The notes: generated from the sequence alone by a model not told the origin. A stretch of DNA of 7,405 nt from a virus (IMGVR_UViG_2706794665_000010), one strand, 5' to 3'; counted from the first letter of the stretch, positions 1 to 7,405 are shown. Translations and numbers: made by a program.

Positions 1-2
1 GG

Positions 3-98
3 GGAATATCTCCCCGGCAGCCTTCAGGGAAAAATATCATCAGATGGCTGCTTAAAAAAAGAACAAATGGTAGTGTCCGCTATTGCCAGTACACCTCA
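3..98. repeat. Left copy of a perfect inverted repeat (partner at 7310-7405); covers the upstream region and first ~10 codons of ORF 67-297
   Basis: Reverse complement of 7310-7405 matches 3-98 base for base by manual comparison. Bases 1-2 (gg) would pair with sequence beyond 7405, so the repeat probably runs off-window. Confidence 0.85.
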
Positions 99-2304: not shown

Positions 2305-2866
2305 ATCCTGGTGGGCGGTCCGCAATCAGGTGGCGGACGCGCTACCGGAAGCGGTATTACGTCGTTCGCTGGGGTTGCGTGCGGAAAAAATTCGCTCTGT
2401 GTACAGTGAAAGCGACATCATACCGGGAGAGCAGACAGCCACCAGCATACTGAAGCAGCGCACAAAAAATATTGCGTTACTGCCTCACGTCCACCAGCAA
2501 CAGAACCCACCACAGGAAAAGACGGTGGTCAGCATTGCCGTTGATCCGGAGTCACCGGCTCAGTATCTCCAGCGCCAGAAATCACAACGGGAAGAGATGC
2601 CTGTATACACGCGCTGGGTAAAAACGCAGAAATGCATGACGTGTGGCAATCAGGCAGATGATCCGCATCACATCATTGGTCATGGACTGGGAGGGATGGG
2701 AACAAAGGCTGATGATTTGTTTGTTATTCCGTTATGCCGTAAATGCCGTAACGAACTACATGCCGGAGTAAAAGATTTTGAAGAGAAACACGGCAGTCAG
2801 CTGTTGTTGCTGATTCGTTTTTTAATGCACGCGAGAAATTCGGGTGTTCTGAAGTGGAAAGCATAA
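2305..2866 (+). CDS. C-terminal portion of a nin-region protein with a YbcO-like (DUF1364-type) zinc-binding putative nuclease domain; possibly DUF968/YdfU family. 5' end masked.
   Basis: Frame is open from the first unmasked base to TAA 2864-2866. Motif CMTCG...DPHHIIGHGLGGMGTKADDLFVIPLCRKCRNELH parallels the recalled YbcO pattern H-x-I...GxGTK..DL...CxxC. Stop abuts the rusA start. Confidence 0.75.
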
Positions 2867-3247
2867 ATGACCGAGCGCATAGAATTTGTTTTACCTTACC
2901 CGCCGACGGTGAACACTTACTGGCGTCGTCGTGGCAGCACATATTTTGTATCAAAAGCCGGGGAGCGTTATCGCCGGGCAGTGGCGCTTATTGTTCGCCA
3001 GCAGCGGCTGAAATTAAGCCTGTCCGGAAGGTTGGCAATAAAAATTATTGCAGAACCACCGGATAAGCGCCGCCGTGACCTGGACAATATTCTGAAAGCG
3101 CCGCTGGATGCGCTGACGCATGCGGGGTTGCTAATGGACGATGAGCAGTTTGATGAAATCAATATCGTTCGTGCTCAGCCAGTATCTGGTGGACGTCTGG
3201 GGGTGAAGATTTATCCCATAATGCTTGAAGGGCAGGTCAAAAAATGA
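2867..3247 (+). CDS. rusA: RusA-family Holliday junction resolvase (126 aa)
   Basis: Similar in length and motifs to recalled E. coli RusA (PxxRRRDLDN, LDDxQ, GGRL). Sits in the canonical position just upstream of Q. Stop overlaps the Q start (ATGA). Confidence 0.88.
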   Translation: MTERIEFVLPYPPTVNTYWRRRGSTYFVSKAGERYRRAVALIVRQQRLKLSLSGRLAIKIIAEPPDKRRRDLDNILKAPLDALTHAGLLMDDEQFDEINIVRAQPVSGGRLGVKIYPIMLEGQVKK

Positions 3248-4098
3248 AACTGGAAGATTTACCGAAATACTACTCCCCAAAATCCCCCGGCCTGACTGAT
3301 GCATCGGCCTCAACGTCGAAAGATGCGCTGAGTATCACTGATGTGATGGCCGCGCAGGGCATGACACAGAATCGGGCTGAGATGGGGGTTTCTGCGTTCC
3401 TTGGGAAAATGGGCATTAGTATGAATGACAGAGAGCGGGCAACAGAATTGCTGACAGAATATGCACTCAGTCGGTGTGATCGCGTGGCGGCGTTAAGAAA
3501 ACTCCCGGCAGAAATAAAACCGGCAGTGATGCGTATTATGGCTTCGTATGCGTTTGAAGATTATGCCCGTAGCGCGGCGAGCAAAAAACAGTGCCCTTGT
3601 TGCTATGGGGAAAAATTTATTGAAAGCGTAGTTTTTACAAACAAGGTCCAGTATCCGGATGGTAAGCCGCCGGTATGGGCAAAGTGTACGAAAGGTGTGT
3701 ATCCGTCTTACTGGGAAGAATGGAAAAAAGTCAGGGAGGTGGTAAAAGTTGCCTGTCCGGAGTGTGGCGGAAAGGGTGAGGTTTCCACCGCCTGTAAGGA
3801 TTGCCGTGGGCGTGGTGTCGCCATTCATCGTGAAGAGTCGGTAAAACGTGGTATGCCTGTTATCAGAGACTGCCAGCGTTGTGGTGGTCGTGGCTATGAA
3901 AGACTACCATCAACGGAGGCATTTAATGCTATATGCGAGGTGACAAACCAGATAACACGCGCGTCATGGGAAAAAACAGTTAAGAAATTCTATGATGCGC
4001 TGGTGACTCGGTTTGATATTGAAGAAGCATGGGCTGAGCGGCAGTTAAAAAAGGTAACTAGGTTGATTTTTCCGGAATCTGTGGTAAATTCGTCATAA
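3244..4098 (+). CDS. Lambdoid late-gene antiterminator Q (284 aa), zinc-finger type
   Basis: N-terminus MKLEDLPKYYSPKSPGL resembles recalled QuuD-type Q proteins. Cys clusters CPCC, CPECGGKG, CKDCRGRG and CQRCGGRG. Followed by a PR'-like promoter and short terminated leader. Confidence 0.88.
   Translation: MKLEDLPKYYSPKSPGLTDASASTSKDALSITDVMAAQGMTQNRAEMGVSAFLGKMGISMNDRERATELLTEYALSRCDRVAALRKLPAEIKPAVMRIMASYAFEDYARSAASKKQCPCCYGEKFIESVVFTNKVQYPDGKPPVWAKCTKGVYPSYWEEWKKVREVVKVACPECGGKGEVSTACKDCRGRGVAIHREESVKRGMPVIRDCQRCGGRGYERLPSTEAFNAICEVTNQITRASWEKTVKKFYDALVTRFDIEEAWAERQLKKVTRLIFPESVVNSS
4063..4090 (+). promoter_or_regulatory. PR'-like late promoter (copy 1) overlapping the 3' end of Q
   Basis: TTGATT (4063-4068), 16-nt spacer, extended -10 TGgTAAATT (4082-4090). 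The TAAATT -10 with upstream TG matches lambda PR' as recalled. Predicted start near 4097-4099. Confidence 0.5.
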
Positions 4099-4101
4099 CT
4101 A

Positions 4102-4163
4102 TGGGCGTTTTATGCCTGACGTTAGAAGAGTTTCTACAACCCGCCGCCGAGCGGGTTTTTTAT
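4102..4163 (+). repeat. 62-nt block (initial transcribed region plus tR') identical to 4950-5011
   Basis: Manual alignment: identical over 62 nt, while the adjacent Q 3' sequence is clearly diverged between the two copies. Confidence 0.85.
4139..4162 (+). terminator. tR'-like rho-independent terminator (copy 1), about 60 nt downstream of the predicted PR' start
   Basis: CCCGC-cgccga-GCGGG hairpin followed by TTTTTTA. Confidence 0.6.
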
Positions 4164-4200
4164 TGCGGAATTAATTACGGACCGTTATTATTCTGCTCCC

Positions 4201-4276
4201 GGCCCTTTAGCTCAGTGGTGAGAGCGAGCGACTCATAATCGCCAGGTCGCTGGTTCAAATCCAGCAAGGGCCACCA
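4201..4276 (+). tRNA. tRNA with CAU anticodon, most like tRNA-Ile2 (ileX/ileZ type); elongator Met not excluded
   Basis: Hand-folded cloverleaf: acceptor GGCCCTT/AAGGGCC, D-stem GCTC/GAGC, anticodon loop CTCATAA, T-arm GCTGG-TTCAAAT-CCAGC, encoded CCA. C4-G69 and C5-G68 are consistent with recalled tRNA-Ile2 determinants. Confidence 0.85.
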
Positions 4277-4572
4277 TCACAAACCGCCATTAGCTTATCA
4301 GGAAGAGCAGACGACACGATNNNNNNNNNNNNNNNNNNNNNNNNNNNNNNNNNNNNNNNNNNNNNNNNNNNNNNNNNNNNNNNNNNNNNNNNNNNNNNNN
4401 NNNNNNNNNNNNNNNNNNNNNNNNNNNNNNNNNNNNNNNNNNNNNNNNNNNNNNNNNNNNNNNNNNNNNNNNNNNNNNNNNNNNNNNNNNNNNNNNNNNN
4501 NNNNNNNNNNNNNNNNNNNNNNNNNNNNNNNNNNNNNNNNNNNNNNNNNNNNNNNNNNNNNNNNNNNNNNNT

Positions 4573-4647
4573 TACGATACGTTGGTGGTTCGGTTTGACA
4601 TTGAAGAGGCATGGGCGGAGCGGCAGTTAAAGAGGGTAACGCGATAG
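4573..4647 (+). pseudogene. 3' remnant of a second, diverged Q gene (visible part YDTLVVRFDIEEAWAERQLKRVTR*)
   Basis: Aligns to the Q C-terminus (YDALVTRFDIEEAWAERQLKKVTR) with substitutions, a roughly 10-nt insertion and an earlier in-frame TAG. At most about 300 nt lies between tRNA copy 1 and this point, so a full Q cannot fit. Confidence 0.6.
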
Positions 4648-4652
4648 TGTTG

Positions 4653-4680
4653 TTGATTTTTCCCGAATCTGTGGTAAATT
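4653..4680 (+). promoter_or_regulatory. PR'-like late promoter (copy 2)
   Basis: TTGATT (4653-4658), 16-nt spacer, TGgTAAATT (4672-4680); same elements as copy 1. Followed by mask 4685-4949 where copy 1 has only about 8 nt. Confidence 0.4.
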
Positions 4681-4949
4681 TGCTNNNNNNNNNNNNNNNN
4701 NNNNNNNNNNNNNNNNNNNNNNNNNNNNNNNNNNNNNNNNNNNNNNNNNNNNNNNNNNNNNNNNNNNNNNNNNNNNNNNNNNNNNNNNNNNNNNNNNNNN
4801 NNNNNNNNNNNNNNNNNNNNNNNNNNNNNNNNNNNNNNNNNNNNNNNNNNNNNNNNNNNNNNNNNNNNNNNNNNNNNNNNNNNNNNNNNNNNNNNNNNNN
4901 NNNNNNNNNNNNNNNNNNNNNNNNNNNNNNNNNNNNNNNNNNNNNNNNN

Positions 4950-5011
4950 TGGGCGTTTTATGCCTGACGTTAGAAGAGTTTCTACAACCCGCCGCCGAGC
5001 GGGTTTTTTAT
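4950..5011 (+). repeat. Second copy of the 62-nt initial-transcribed-region/tR' block, including the terminator hairpin at 4988-5009
   Basis: Identical to 4102-4163; hairpin CCCGC/GCGGG followed by a T-run. Confidence 0.85.
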
Positions 5012-5131
5012 GACTGAAATCGCGTCAGTACAGTAAACGCGCTGGTGGCGGTGAATACCTGTCTTTCAGCTTGCTGGCTTTTTCGACAAGAGTTATTGGT
5101 GTGTCACGTTAACCGGAAAAGGGAAAAAGAC

Positions 5132-5329
5132 ATGCTAAAACAGCAGGATATGACAGAAACCGCCAGAGTGGTGTTTAATGAATTAAGCGTTACCGAACCG
5201 GCGACAGTCGGGGAGATAGCGCAGAATACTTACCTTTCACGCGAACGCTGCCAGTTAATACTGACCCAGCTGGTTATGGCGGGTCTGGCAGACTATCAGT
5301 TCGGTTGTTACAGACGCCTTCCGCAGTGA
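5132..5329 (+). CDS. Small putative winged-helix DNA-binding protein (65 aa)
   Basis: GA-rich SD-like region (AAGGGAAAAAG) before ATG 5132. The segment TVGEIAQNTYLSRERCQLILTQLVMAGLA fits an Lrp/MarR-like helix-turn-helix pattern. Followed by an intrinsic terminator. The ATG at 5045 is not preferred. Confidence 0.5.
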   Translation: MLKQQDMTETARVVFNELSVTEPATVGEIAQNTYLSRERCQLILTQLVMAGLADYQFGCYRRLPQ

Positions 5330-5343
5330 AGGCTTTTTTATTT
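5316..5343 (+). terminator. Rho-independent terminator overlapping the stop of ORF 5132-5329
   Basis: GCCTTC-cgcagt-GAAGGC hairpin followed by TTTTTTATTT. Confidence 0.6.
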
Positions 5344-5356
5344 GTGGTAAATGGGC

Positions 5357-5387
5357 GGCTGGTGGGTGTTAGGGGCACCCACCAGCC
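5357..5387. other. Perfect 12-bp inverted repeat with a 7-nt spacer (GGCTGGTGGGTG-ttagggg-CACCCACCAGCC)
   Basis: Seen directly; all 12 pairs are Watson-Crick. No T-run follows on either strand, so it is not a canonical terminator. Confidence 0.6.
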
Positions 5388-5487
5388 ATCTGCTCATGCG
5401 TTGGGTTCACAAGCAAACCTCAGGCCCACTGCTTTGCGCAAAAGCAGAATGAGCCTATCAGAGACAGGCTTAATGATCCATGCTTAA

Positions 5488-5507
5488 TACTGTAAAAATA
5501 TCCAGTT
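5488..5507. promoter_or_regulatory. LexA (SOS) box-like palindrome TACTGTAAAAATATCCAGTT
   Basis: Fits the CTG-N10-CAG core and most of the recalled consensus TACTGTATATATATACAGTA. Lies 1 nt before mask 5509-5774, upstream of the visible methyltransferase body. Confidence 0.35.
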
Positions 5508-5774
5508 GNNNNNNNNNNNNNNNNNNNNNNNNNNNNNNNNNNNNNNNNNNNNNNNNNNNNNNNNNNNNNNNNNNNNNNNNNNNNNNNNNNNNNNNNNNNN
5601 NNNNNNNNNNNNNNNNNNNNNNNNNNNNNNNNNNNNNNNNNNNNNNNNNNNNNNNNNNNNNNNNNNNNNNNNNNNNNNNNNNNNNNNNNNNNNNNNNNNN
5701 NNNNNNNNNNNNNNNNNNNNNNNNNNNNNNNNNNNNNNNNNNNNNNNNNNNNNNNNNNNNNNNNNNNNNNNNNN

Positions 5775-6560
5775 ATGATGCGTGAACGCTTCAGTGTGCT
5801 GAACCATATTATCTGGGCGAAGCCGTCCGGACGCTGGAACGGATGCAACAAGGAAAGCCTGCGGGCGTATTTCCCCGCCACAGAGCGCATTCTGTTCGCG
5901 GAACATTATCAGGGGCCGTATCGTCCGAAAGATGCCGGGTATGCGGCGAAGGGCAGTGCACTGAAACAGCATGTGATGGCCCCGCTGATTTCTTACTTTC
6001 GTGATGCGCGAGCTGCCCTGGGGATAACGGCAAAACAGATTGCAGATGCCACAGGAAAGAAAAACATGGTGTCGCACTGGTTCAGTGCCGGTCAGTGGCA
6101 GTTGCCGAATGAAAGCGATTATCTGAAATTACAGGCGCTGTTTGCCCGGGTGGCAGAAGAGAAGCATCGGCGTGGTGAACTGGAAAAGCTCCACCACCAG
6201 CTGGTGGATACGTATACCTCACTGAACCGGCAGTATGCGGAGCTGCTGAGTGAATATAAACATCTGCGGCGGTATTTTGGCGTGACGGTGCAGGTGCCGT
6301 ATACCGATGTGTGGACGCATAAACCGGTGCAGTTCTATCCCGGGAAACATCCGTGCGAAAAACCGGCAGAAATGCTGCAGCAGATAATCAGCGCTAGCAG
6401 TCGTCCGGGTGACCTGATTGCAGATTTTTTCATGGGGTTGGGTTCGACAGTGAAAGCGGCACTGGCGCTCGGGCGTCGTGCAATTGGCGTTGAGCTGGAG
6501 ACTGAACGTTTTGAGCAGACGGTTCGGGAAGTACAGGATTTAGTCAGCCAGAACGGATGA
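5775..6560 (+). CDS. DNA methyltransferase, beta-class amino-MTase (N6-adenine or N4-cytosine), C-terminal about 260 aa; 5' end masked
   Basis: HPCEKP followed by DLIADFFMGLGSTVKAALALGRRAIGVE parallels the recalled YhdJ arrangement (HPTQKP ... DPFAGSGTT...IGIE). The expected N-terminal DPPY-type motif would fall in mask 5509-5774. Stop TGA 6558-6560. Confidence 0.8.
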   Translation: MMRERFSVLNHIIWAKPSGRWNGCNKESLRAYFPATERILFAEHYQGPYRPKDAGYAAKGSALKQHVMAPLISYFRDARAALGITAKQIADATGKKNMVSHWFSAGQWQLPNESDYLKLQALFARVAEEKHRRGELEKLHHQLVDTYTSLNRQYAELLSEYKHLRRYFGVTVQVPYTDVWTHKPVQFYPGKHPCEKPAEMLQQIISASSRPGDLIADFFMGLGSTVKAALALGRRAIGVELETERFEQTVREVQDLVSQNG

Positions 6561-6600
6561 TATTGAAGAATTAATTACGCGTCGTTATTATGCGGCTCCC

Positions 6601-6676
6601 GGCCCTTTAGCTCAGTGGTGAGAGCGAGCGACTCATAATCGCCAGGTCGCTGGTTCAAATCCAGCAAGGGCCACCA
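6601..6676 (+). tRNA. Second copy of the tRNA(CAU), 76/76 identical to 4201-4276
   Basis: Same cloverleaf. Flanks are similar but clearly diverged (upstream roughly 85% over about 35 nt, downstream diverging after about 30 nt). Confidence 0.85.
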
Positions 6677-7101
6677 TCACATACCGCCATTAGCTCATCA
6701 GGAAAGAGCGCCAGCCTNNNNNNNNNNNNNNNNNNNNNNNNNNNNNNNNNNNNNNNNNNNNNNNNNNNNNNNNNNNNNNNNNNNNNNNNNNNNNNNNNNN
6801 NNNNNNNNNNNNNNNNNNNNNNNNNNNNNNNNNNNNNNNNNNNNNNNNNNNNNNNNNNNNNNNNNNNNNNNNNNNNNNNNNNNNNNNNNNNNNNNNNNNN
6901 NNNNNNNNNNNNNNNNNNNNNNNNNNNNNNNNNNNNNNNNNNNNNNNNNNNNNNNNNNNNNNNNNNNNNNNNNNNNNGAATCCCCCTGTGCGGAGGGGCA
7001 ATCAGCGAGTAGGTATATGGGATAATCGCGGATTCAGGTGCTGGTACTGAATTCACCGGGAGGCACCCGGCATCATGCAATGGCACATAGCGCCACTCTC
7101 C

Positions 7102-7126
7102 AGCCCTCTCCGGAGGGGCTTTTCTG
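7102..7126 (+). terminator. Candidate rho-independent terminator
   Basis: AGCCCT-ctccgga-GGGGCT hairpin (includes one G-U pair) followed by TTTTCT. A weaker candidate than the others. Confidence 0.35.
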
Positions 7127-7309
7127 TGCCGGATACATCACAGTTTCTGGAACCTTAGGTACTACAGTATCAGTCAGGGTGCTATATTTTCAGATGTGAT
7201 GAAAGCCTGTCAGCAGGCAGGGCGTATCGGAAATGACCCAGTAGAGAAAACGTTGACTCAGATACCGGTGCTGAGTTACCGGGAAACCGGCATCACATGA
7301 CCGCTATCC

Positions 7310-7405
7310 TGAGGTGTACTGGCAATAGCGGACACTACCATTTGTTCTTTTTTTAAGCAGCCATCTGATGATATTTTTCCCTGAAGGCTGCCGGGGAGAT
7401 ATTCC
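7310..7405. repeat. Right copy of the perfect inverted repeat (partner 3-98); on the minus strand it encodes the same start MVVSAIASTP fused to a different 11-codon tail
   Basis: Manual reverse-complement comparison. Minus-strand translation from 7339 gives MVVSAIASTPQDSGHVMPVSR then stop. Confidence 0.85.

Follow-up and report, generated by a model that had tools for sequence, protein, structure and literature searches.

M.EcoGII and its close relative M.EcoGI (333 of 349 residues identical, 16 differences) are orphan DNA methyltransferases borne on prophages of Escherichia coli O104:H4 C227-11; M.EcoGII is part of a very extensive family and lies in a well-defined prophage (PMC5778455, Murray et al. 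2018). It methylates adenine irrespective of context, in double-stranded as well as single-stranded DNA, and RNA is a weak substrate in vitro; in duplex DNA methylation can reach 99% of adenines, and many restriction enzymes are then blocked (PMC5778455). The gene is silent in the lysogen, clones expressing it constitutively are slow-growing and unstable, and the authors inferred an anti-restriction role and late expression (PMC5778455). The enzyme has become a widely used reagent for adenine-methylation footprinting and, among phage anti-restriction enzymes, a textbook case of the 'protect everything' kind. Here we describe a gene of this kind in IMGVR_UViG_2706794665_000010, a viral DNA of 7,405 nucleotides (the window), where it follows an open reading frame of 65 codons (ORF65) in a cassette placed behind the antiterminator gene Q, the promoter PR' and the terminator tR'.

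An earlier note on this DNA had described a cargo slot holding a winged-helix-like reading frame, a hairpin, a LexA-box-like palindrome and an orphan methyltransferase with an anti-restriction or epigenetic role. That reading was partly supported, being right in outline, and had missed that the methyltransferase belongs to the M.EcoGI/GII family. We consider it likely that window positions 5012-6567 are the known cassette of ORF65 and an M.EcoGII-type gene, a Q-dependent late gene which would be kept silent by terminators, with the leader RNA before the methyltransferase and a LexA-type box in its first codons as candidates for a further part. Annotated copies of the cassette, which is common in lambda-like prophages of E. 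coli and Shigella, occur in hundreds of Shiga toxin (Stx) and further lambdoid phages and in the majority of E. coli genomes, and as a set of genes it is already known and ordinary; the leader and the SOS-type box seem undescribed.

Within the window the ATG and the 3' part of the methyltransferase (5775-6560) are visible while codons 11-91, including the DPPY motif, lie under an assembly gap. The visible part matched the PF01555 profile at 91.5 bits and a full-length relative matched it at 154.3 bits (cutoff 26.7). In the finished chromosome CP146298.2 (locus L093) the gap corresponds to 244 nucleotides, which put the ATG at 5480 in frame with position 5775 and give an intact gene of 352 codons. 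The motif order of the L093 protein is that of the beta class, residues 33-39 reading VTDPPYF and FFMGLGST lying close to residue 310. Thus the beta-class amino-methyltransferase proposed earlier is borne out, and the full-length gene carries its catalytic DPPY N-terminal part. The L093 protein is identical to M.EcoGII at 324 of 349 positions over the full length (93%) and the visible window part at 233 of 258, the M.EcoGII reference being the sequence in Table S1 of PMC11551740, machine-read from the PDF with a few reading errors. Like the window gene, M.EcoGII and M.EcoGI have the order DPPY, target-recognition domain, FxGxG; M.EcoGII is 349 residues long against 352 here and the C-terminal tail differs. 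The best PADLOC match was a Type II methyltransferase model (E = 5e-163). Phage 1720a-02, whose enzyme was noted to be very similar to M.EcoGII (PMC5778455), is 94.5% identical to this region at the DNA level. By its sequence the cassette methyltransferase is an orphan member of the characterised M.EcoGI/GII family, and the window allele, like M.EcoGII, would be expected to N6-methylate adenines in essentially any sequence.

The PADLOC match and the N positions in the window would also suit one half of an ordinary restriction-modification system, the endonuclease being concealed in the gap or the flanks. The neighbourhood was examined in 80 loci from species-representative genomes, ranging from E. 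albertii to Proteus and Xenorhabdus, with methyltransferases 61-98% identical to the query. No restriction endonuclease was found beside the methyltransferase in the examined phage and genome loci or in the 20 commonest neighbour clusters of these 80 loci, most single-member clusters being unannotated, and no nuclease family was present among those clusters or in the annotated phages and genomes. Where a Type II system has an adjacent cognate endonuclease, the neighbours here are ORF65, tRNAs, Q and lysis genes. An endonuclease hidden in the gap was rejected as well; the gap falls within the gene, and in L093, L089 and L002 what occupies it codes for the methyltransferase. The earlier view that no endonuclease accompanies the enzyme therefore stands for the loci and clusters examined, and half of a restriction-modification system is extremely improbable.

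A second alternative is that the enzyme mainly targets RNA or host gene expression rather than protecting phage DNA. M.EcoGII does methylate RNA and single-stranded DNA in vitro (PMC5778455, PMC11551740), and relatives in the beta class include writers of N6-methyladenosine in RNA (PMC7544214). However, the activity of M.EcoGII on RNA is ∼100-fold below that on DNA (V0 0.12 versus 11.12; PMC11551740, Table S3), and the near-complete methylation of duplex DNA, with its block of many restriction enzymes, speaks for DNA as the substrate. The neighbourhood in Xenorhabdus also suits counter-defence. In 13 Xenorhabdus loci (for example L081:5190-6005) a 271-residue Tad2-like protein (Thoeris anti-defence 2, PF11195) is encoded directly 3' of the methyltransferase, so that two counter-defence functions are neighbours in the late-region slot. 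We give a main role in RNA or host gene expression a slim chance. Of the two roles proposed earlier, anti-restriction with late expression agrees with what was inferred for M.EcoGII (PMC5778455), while a sequence-specific epigenetic role misfits a non-specific enzyme that is silent in lysogens.

The cassette is, on comparison of many genomes, a discrete presence/absence module in a true cargo slot behind PR'/tR'. In the empty-slot allele four bases, tgcg (window 4164-4167), replace the whole module. Among complete E. coli genomes 1199 have this empty form uninterrupted, with Q-PR'-tR' running directly into tRNA-Ile, and 1414 have the occupied form; both are sometimes present in one genome. Since the direct tR'-tRNA junction is present in one piece in all of the former, it is real. 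Matches to the region as a whole came from 3363 complete E. coli genomes out of 5426 and from 287 phage records, the bulk of them Stx2 phages, far above what chance would give. In the 80 loci the upstream neighbours were Q antiterminators of three unrelated Pfam families (PF06530, PF06323 and PF03589), DUF968 and DUF1367; the downstream neighbours were holins of four families, lysozyme and Rz. The slot described earlier is thus confirmed, and comparison with the late regions of related prophages places the same module between Q and the lysis genes across the Enterobacterales. Stx2 phages and E. coli chromosomes run from Q through a small reading frame, 'DNA methylase', tRNA-Ile, tRNA-Arg and tRNA-Arg to stx2 or an esterase gene, and from there to the holin and lysozyme genes. 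tRNAs of the Escherichia type were found 3' of the methyltransferase in Escherichia loci only.

The earlier note had called this position a moron site. Juhala et al. (2000) are said to have defined a moron as a self-contained cargo unit. The cassette is indeed a discrete module between conserved phage genes, bounded at 5012 and 6567; the remaining features of a moron, its own promoter and terminator with expression from the repressed prophage, are not seen here, the sole terminator being the one that follows ORF65. Because no promoter of its own is detectable, the cassette is not a classical moron.

Transcription from PR' meets two terminators before it reaches the methyltransferase. In the Stx phage Sp5, PR' is constitutive but its transcription stops at tR' (PMC7547250). 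In the window the PR' -35/-10 could be read by eye (TTGATT ... TGgTAAATT, 4653-4680), and the segment 4950-5011 with tR' is 96% identical to another copy at 4102-4170 and has its counterpart at L093 10244-10305. The second terminator between PR' and the methyltransferase is that of ORF65, a hairpin at 5316-5333 followed by TTTTTTATTT, with the ORF65 stop codon within the loop. Its stem co-varies across genera (GCCTCC/GGAGGC, GCTGCC/GGCAGT) and its T run is weaker outside Escherichia. Between tR' and the methyltransferase no sigma-70 promoter was detected by consensus scans, whether in the window, in Salmonella (L024) or in Providencia (L073), and inspection by eye for extended -10, sigma-54, sigma-32, sigma-E and sigma-28 motifs, including the antisense strand, found no promoter either. 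Lying behind two terminators and with no detectable promoter of its own, the methyltransferase would be a late gene reached only by Q-modified polymerase.

Two elements in this interval were set aside. TGTGAAAAT and its variants were considered as an extended -10 and are not conserved as such, and a terminator-like hairpin on the minus strand (5452-5470) occurs in E. coli only and not in other genera. At the start of the leader the Escherichia sequences (window 5344-5356) read TGTGGTAAATGGGCG, echoing the extended -10 of PR' (4670-4684: TGTGGTAAATT ... TGGGCG), and other genera have TGTGAAAAT, TGTGGAAAT or shorter forms. As this motif varies across genera it is not a conserved promoter; the echo of the PR' -10 may be a trace of cassette insertion. 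The short PR'-tR' transcripts themselves, 4093-4170 and from a start in an N run to 5011, would be ∼65-70 nucleotides long and gave weak, sub-threshold Rfam hits to isrK and Trp_leader.

The ∼150 bases between ORF65 and the methyltransferase are conserved above either protein in Enterobacteriaceae, Erwiniaceae and Morganellaceae, and the leader is kept from Escherichia to Proteus though methyltransferase identity drops to 61%. RNAalifold and single-sequence folds concurred on an architecture with a long hairpin, P1, and a second domain in which the long-range helix P2 encloses P3 and P4. P1 holds the perfect 12-base-pair inverted repeat seen earlier (5357-5368 with 5376-5387, 7-nucleotide loop), and 5-6 of its 16 pairs have compensatory changes, such as GCUGGUGGGUG/CACCCACCAGC to ACUGUAAAGGUG/CACCCUUACAGU in Providencia and Proteus. 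On its 3' strand P2 stops 1-2 bases short of the AUG (5480-5482), and in the window this strand covers the AUG. Minimum-energy folds, computed for the window and for Salmonella L024 (-64.3 and -59.9 kcal/mol; z = -3.5 and -4.1), both have the start codon paired, and no good Shine-Dalgarno sequence precedes it. When pairs were counted over 32 and 42 sequences, 97.6% and 95.6% of cells were paired, with 11 and 10 compensatory pairs against 3.3 ± 1.4 and 3.2 ± 1.3 after shuffling (none of 500 shuffles reached as many) and 1-7 in slid controls. The long-range pairs of P2 co-vary across ∼70 nucleotides. There is also an alternative pairing, between the foot of P1, UGGGC (∼5352-5356), and GCCCA of P3 (∼5425-5429; columns 32-36 with 108-112 of alignment A4), which is invariant in 41 of 42 sequences; the exception, L013, changes both sides, giving one co-variation. 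The mutually exclusive pairings of UGGGC suggest a switch.

An independent check was made by an exact-word scan of IMG/VR viral contigs for the 21-base core of P1. The methyltransferase ATG lay 129-131 nucleotides 3' of the core in 112 of 116 evaluable contigs, and in the other four a different cargo was joined inside P1. None of the Rfam 15 families matched positions 5330-5480 at the gathering score and nothing credible appeared at E up to 10, the best sub-threshold hit being P26 on the opposite strand (24 bits versus 36). On this comparative evidence the leader (∼130 nucleotides) seems to be an apparently undescribed conserved RNA element, a candidate for a new RNA motif, with over 150 instances in nature. 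In IMG/VR contigs L112, L150, L176 and L195 an A/T-rich gene of ∼240 codons stands in place of the methyltransferase cassette; its junction lies inside P1, which suggests that P1 may be a recombination joint for cargo exchange.

It could be argued that the intergenic palindromes are not RNA structure at all and that they are DNA operators for ORF65, as in a controller-like transcriptional circuit. ORF65 is predicted to have a winged-helix DNA-binding fold, the region is rich in palindromes, for example GCTTTAGC/GCTAAAGC, and both strands of the leader region fold well. Conserved G-U pairs, however, would be mismatched half-sites in DNA, and two pairs are G-U in 33 and 30 of the 42 sequences. 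Our own count over the per-pair rows gives ∼106 G-U cells in 1463, and as these are mismatches on the other strand the mRNA strand is favoured. The leader stems, of 10-16 base pairs with loops, are unlike operator half-sites, and P2 co-varies over a long range. Moreover, 13 loci keep the leader region without ORF65 and no promoter was found for ORF65 to control. Operators for ORF65 are therefore unlikely, and a leader RNA remains the preferred interpretation of these palindromes.

The palindrome TACTGTAAAAATATCCAGTT occupies codons 3-9 of the methyltransferase. On a matrix derived from 21 LexA boxes of E. coli it scored 22.7 bits, where the training boxes scored 15.3-28.3 and the next unrelated site in the window 9.2, in agreement with the earlier note. 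It has 16 of 20 matches to TACTG(TA)5CAGTA and, as in E. coli SOS boxes, the form CTG-N10-CAG with an A/T-rich spacer. Of 57 genome loci 49 have CTG-N10-CAG at this position, as do all 112 viral contigs; M.EcoGII, whose N-terminus MLNTVKISSCELINADCLEF is identical to that of the window, has the same LexA-like box. Among 47 distinct N-termini with the box, selected on CTG and CAG and so in part conserved by construction, the third positions of codons 4, 7, 8 and 9 were conserved at 100, 100, 100 and 98%, against 40-72% for codons 16-40 (one codon 85%). The box positions that were not forced by this selection behave alike, positions 10 (A) and 21 (third base of codon 7, A) being conserved at 100% and position 27 (third base of codon 9, T) at 98%. 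Codon 8 always ends in C despite encoding Ser, Asn, His, Thr or Pro, and the codon for Ser9 is always AGT or AGC. Such conservation at synonymous sites indicates a constraint on the nucleic acid and not on the protein. Alternation of ACAG and CCAG is typical of genuine LexA boxes, as in uvrB and recN. No report of LexA control of this methyltransferase gene was found in the literature, and we regard the site as a candidate LexA operator, apparently undescribed. Strong matches to a LexA box (24.5-26 bits) were also noted at L027:384 and L018:364, ∼3.6 kb upstream of the methyltransferase in two prophages.

The palindrome could instead be a small hairpin in the mRNA or an A/U-rich feature of translation initiation. 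RNAalifold pairs ACUG with CAGU, the site is just 3' of the AUG, an unstructured A-rich sequence after an AUG aids initiation and no promoter was found nearby. On the other hand, the four ACUG/CAGU pairs never vary and so lend the structure no positive support; Escherichia-type alleles have lost the fifth pair (ACAG to CCAG) and are left with a 4-base-pair stem and a 10-nucleotide loop; and the full 20-mer scores in the middle of the range of genuine LexA boxes. A hairpin or initiation feature is conceivable but on balance doubtful, and the LexA-type operator is retained as the candidate.

The protein encoded by ORF65 was matched to PHROG 331 (phrog_331, E = 1e-37), to which PHROG assigns no function. 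NCBI names it 'TrmB family transcriptional regulator', a name resting on weak similarity. The profile searches of the two cassette proteins differed in outcome, the methyltransferase being above the PF01555 cutoff and ORF65 below those of TrmB (18.0 bits versus 25.6) and MarR_2 (14.7 versus 27). Among 78 evaluable genome loci, 62 have a homologue ∼150 bases 5' of the methyltransferase, with identity down to 37%, and one is also present in 105 of 109 viral contigs. In 62 distinct full-length homologues the frame has 63-68 codons and third codon positions are the most variable, with strong conservation of helix 3 (RCQLILTQL.MAGL). The best of the AlphaFold2 models (pLDDT 88.6; the other four 55-70) has helices H1-H2-H3 and a beta-hairpin wing, and Foldseek matched it to winged-helix domains of IclR and MarR (TM 0.7-0.8, best E-value only 1e-3), with further matches to dimerisation domains of O-methyltransferases and to the RNA-binding SelB. 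The winged-helix-like reading frame with its own terminator in the earlier note is thereby upheld; as modelled, ORF65 is a real winged-helix protein whose ligand class would be DNA, RNA or protein. Since 13 loci have unrelated genes in its place and retain the leader, the LexA box and the methyltransferase, ORF65 is not obligatory. This weakens the idea that it regulates the methyltransferase and likewise its candidature as an obligatory Com-like activator. From the model and its distribution ORF65 would be a co-transcribed winged-helix accessory protein, frequent but dispensable. The features of the locus are collected in Table 1.

Table 1. Features of the cargo slot and its flanks, in window coordinates.
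Feature	Position	Strand	Basis
Short PR' transcript, 3' part, with terminator tR', whose stem spans 4986-5005 and whose T run reaches 5011; left boundary of the slot	4950-5011	+	terminator scan
Insertion/deletion module of ORF65, leader and methyltransferase	5012-6567	+	window 4102-4210 compared with 4950-5030 and 6540-6610
ORF65, 65-residue small winged-helix protein (predicted fold), PHROG 331	5132-5329	+	ORF list
Intrinsic-terminator-like element after ORF65 (stem GCCTTC/GAAGGC, then T run)	5316-5343	+	terminator scan
Leader helix P1, long hairpin (predicted)	5351-5397	+	inverted-repeat search, fold
Leader domain 2, helices P2-P4 (predicted)	5398-5483	+	folds, consensus structure
Orphan beta-class N6-adenine DNA methyltransferase, M.EcoGI/GII family	5480-6560	+	PF01555; full sequence from L093
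LexA (SOS) box-like palindrome	5488-5507	.	matrix score
Assembly gap, length overestimated (266 N for 244 nucleotides)	5509-5774	.	L093, L089 and L002, each with 244 nucleotides between the same flanks
tRNA, anticodon CAU (ileZ-type tRNA-Ile2); right flank of the slot, outside the cassette	6601-6676	+	ARAGORN, Rfam

The comparison with L093 also changes how the window itself is to be read. The window is the complete draft contig CWSW01000180.1 of assembly GCA_001252695.1 and contains six N runs of 251-266 bases each (1595-1857, 2053-2304, 4321-4571, 4685-4949, 5509-5774 and 6718-6977). Four of its seven sequenced stretches (1-1594, 1858-2052, 5775-6717 and 6978-7405) are 100% identical to L093 and a fifth (4950-5508) is 99.6% identical, yet the N counts of 263, 252, 266 and 260 in the window correspond to 304, 244, 244 and 245 real nucleotides there. 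For the run of 265 N at 4685-4949 the relatives have 7 bases, and the run at 4321-4571 is without counterpart in L093. The stored gene calls of CWSW01000180.1 begin exactly at the edges of the N runs. The N runs thus behave as scaffold gaps of estimated size and not as length-true masks, and since their lengths are wrong, reading frames across them are untrustworthy. Length-true masks, which would imply a 22-nucleotide frameshift in the methyltransferase, are ruled out by the L093 lengths and the starts of the gene calls. Masks of a fixed 244 nucleotides with random padding, considered because three relatives have exactly 244, are ruled out by the L093 series. What the earlier note took for a masked interval at 5509-5774 is consequently an assembly gap.

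The same applies to the 'second' PR'/tR' and tRNA between which the slot had been placed, and which connect to the first copies through N runs only. L093 carries a single array of Q, PR', tR', ORF65, methyltransferase and tRNA, and its segment has 6559 bases against 7405 in the window. Window 2305-4320 is 98.9% identical to L093 and at 4163 its tR' passes directly into the tRNA. The 113-nucleotide island 4572-4684 is a distinct allele of Q, 81.7% identical to L093 and 100% identical to L094, L002 and L003. These two stretches join the remaining sequence solely via N. Judged from these identities, the 'second copy' is probably a scaffolding join of two paralogous prophages, one with an empty and one with an occupied slot, and the tandem duplication an artefact; window 4950-6717 is a faithful picture of a single locus. 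The apparent duplication (probably) and the 'masked' N-terminus are thus corrected as artefacts of a draft scaffold. The Q gene at window 3244-4098 has 284 codons versus 273, and its protein is on record solely in CWSW01000180.1. Compared with L093 (ggtaactag[gtaacaag]gttgatt) an 8-base deletion around 4056-4098 removes the Q stop and extends Q by LIFPESVVNSS into the -35/-10 region of PR'; this Q may be a true paralogue, or it may stem from an error of assembly.

Both ends of the window (1-98 and 7308-7405) are one end of IS600 in inverted orientation (96 nucleotides, 100% complementary), and from these repeats it follows that the contig broke in repeats. In L093 the equivalent segment sits between two inverted copies of IS600, with a full-length insertion sequence on either side. 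The segment is thus an IS600-bounded prophage remnant in a Shigella-like genome. RefSeq labels the equivalent of the tRNA in Table 1 as tRNA-Ile. Elsewhere in the window a type I toxin-antitoxin of the hok/sok type was noted at 938-1263 (Rfam sok at 938-1113, 112 bits; the Hok-family reading frame ends at 1263 and its equivalent is annotated hokD in relatives), and downstream of the tRNAs, partly under an N run, 6949-7131 matched the enterobacterial small RNA STnc100 at 69.8 bits (gathering score 47).

A number of observations weigh against the interpretation given here. As to the enzyme, the only motif sequenced within the window itself is FxGxG, the catalytic N-terminal part being unsequenced there. 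The allele differs from M.EcoGII at 25 positions, some in the target-recognition region, which is predicted to be residues 160-237 of M.EcoGII (PMC11551740), and there is an unusual Ser-to-Leu change inside the FxGxG motif I (FMGLG). Non-specificity, toxicity and silence were demonstrated for M.EcoGII and not for this allele. As to the leader, the compensatory changes come mostly from one clade, the Morganellaceae, and represent few independent events, and Xenorhabdus and Photorhabdus alleles are without P2-P4 and without the LexA box. As to the LexA-type box, scans and inspection found no promoter within ∼150 nucleotides on either strand, where a LexA operator overlaps or closely follows the promoter that it represses; a LexA roadblock at 5488-5507 would also hit the downstream late genes. 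The 13 loci lacking ORF65 belong here too. Finally, the IS600 ends of the window and the insertion sequences flanking the L093 segment mark a degraded prophage which may never be induced.

This last point raises the possibility that in this genome the cassette is a dead passenger of an IS600-trimmed prophage, never expressed, whose intact frame reflects only recent history. The Ser-to-Leu change in motif I would fit such decay, as would some Shigella relatives. The S. boydii protein P0122 is 99% identical to the window methyltransferase and begins MESLPADCLEF instead of MLNTVKISSCELINADCLEF, so that the 5' end is altered there, and Shigella flexneri records contain partial methyltransferase genes only. 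(The 386-residue P0121, from Logan contig L089, has an internal repeat arising from two alleles merged by the assembler.) L093 is nevertheless intact for the frame, DPPY, FxGxG, leader, LexA box, Q, PR' and tR', and a dead passenger would bear on the use of the cassette in this strain and not on its identity. We regard disuse in this strain as possible, though not as the expected state of affairs, and keep to the identification of the segment as an M.EcoGII-type late cassette.

The way in which such a cassette may work can be outlined as follows. Since an enzyme of this type harms the host, it must stay off in the lysogen. Only Q-modified polymerase would pass tR' and the ORF65 terminator, and ORF65 and the methyltransferase would then be expressed late. 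The enzyme would methylate replicating phage DNA before packaging, and on entering its next host this DNA would be shielded against many restriction systems of the adenine-sensitive kind. The structured leader, with no Shine-Dalgarno sequence, would leave stray transcripts untranslated. A LexA operator in the first codons might tie residual expression to SOS, the signal that also induces the prophage. It is thus an inference and not a demonstration that the anatomy of two terminators, leader and SOS box is the basis of silence, but this anatomy does give a concrete and testable account of the silence of M.EcoGII-type genes. We put forward only tentatively, and with more doubt than confidence, the wider proposal that the M.EcoGII family carries an undescribed three-part safety device made up of the leader RNA, a LexA operator in codons 3-9 and ORF65 as a frequent partner. 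If this were true, the device would explain how a non-specific toxic methyltransferase is silent in lysogens and fires only on SOS and Q antitermination.

Among the nearest known systems are the late modules of Stx2 phages, which have the order Q, PR'/tR', small reading frame, 'DNA methylase', tRNA-Ile/Arg/Arg, as in the window. Stx2_EH1910 (LC567834), 1720a-02 (KF030445) and phiP27 (AJ298298) share this gene order at 86-94% DNA identity. In Stx2 phages stx2AB follows the tRNAs, whereas the array in the window is cut by IS600 and is toxin-free. The PR'-tR' short RNA StxS of Stx phage Sp5 (PMC7547250) has its positional equivalent from ∼4941, inside an N run, to 5011, and HnrS, a 66-nucleotide multicopy prophage small RNA (PMC13502914), is a possible equivalent by position. 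This short transcript, constitutive and ended by tR', would precede the cassette and is no part of it. Prophage endolysins under LexA control are a claimed precedent for the SOS-type box (PMC9621596), from which the box here differs in lying inside the coding sequence.

Small regulators encoded beside DNA-modifying enzymes offer a further comparison. The controller (C) proteins of Type II restriction-modification systems are Xre-type helix-turn-helix proteins which act at C-boxes in their own promoter. ORF65 is likewise small and encoded beside a methyltransferase but it is a predicted winged helix, no promoter or C-box was found for it, and there is no endonuclease to time. The com-mom operon of phage Mu is another case. 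It provides a late, toxic DNA-modifying function that is silent in the lysogen; Com, of 62 residues, is encoded just upstream, and an inhibitory RNA stem holds the start region of mom. Com binds RNA and is of the zinc-finger type, Mom is no methyltransferase, and transcription of mom needs Dam, OxyR and C. The cassette described here shares the small upstream reading frame (65 residues) and would be alike in its toxic late modifier and in a start region held in an RNA stem, with no homology between the two. Where Com has a zinc finger and a gene overlapping its target, ORF65 has two Cys without CxxC pairs and a winged helix, lies 150 nucleotides upstream of the methyltransferase with a terminator in between, and is dispensable in 13 loci. 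A review has already drawn a parallel between Mom and M.EcoGII as silent, toxic modifiers (PMC12707154). Should the three-part device exist, the cassette would be a functional analogue of Mu com-mom built of unrelated parts.

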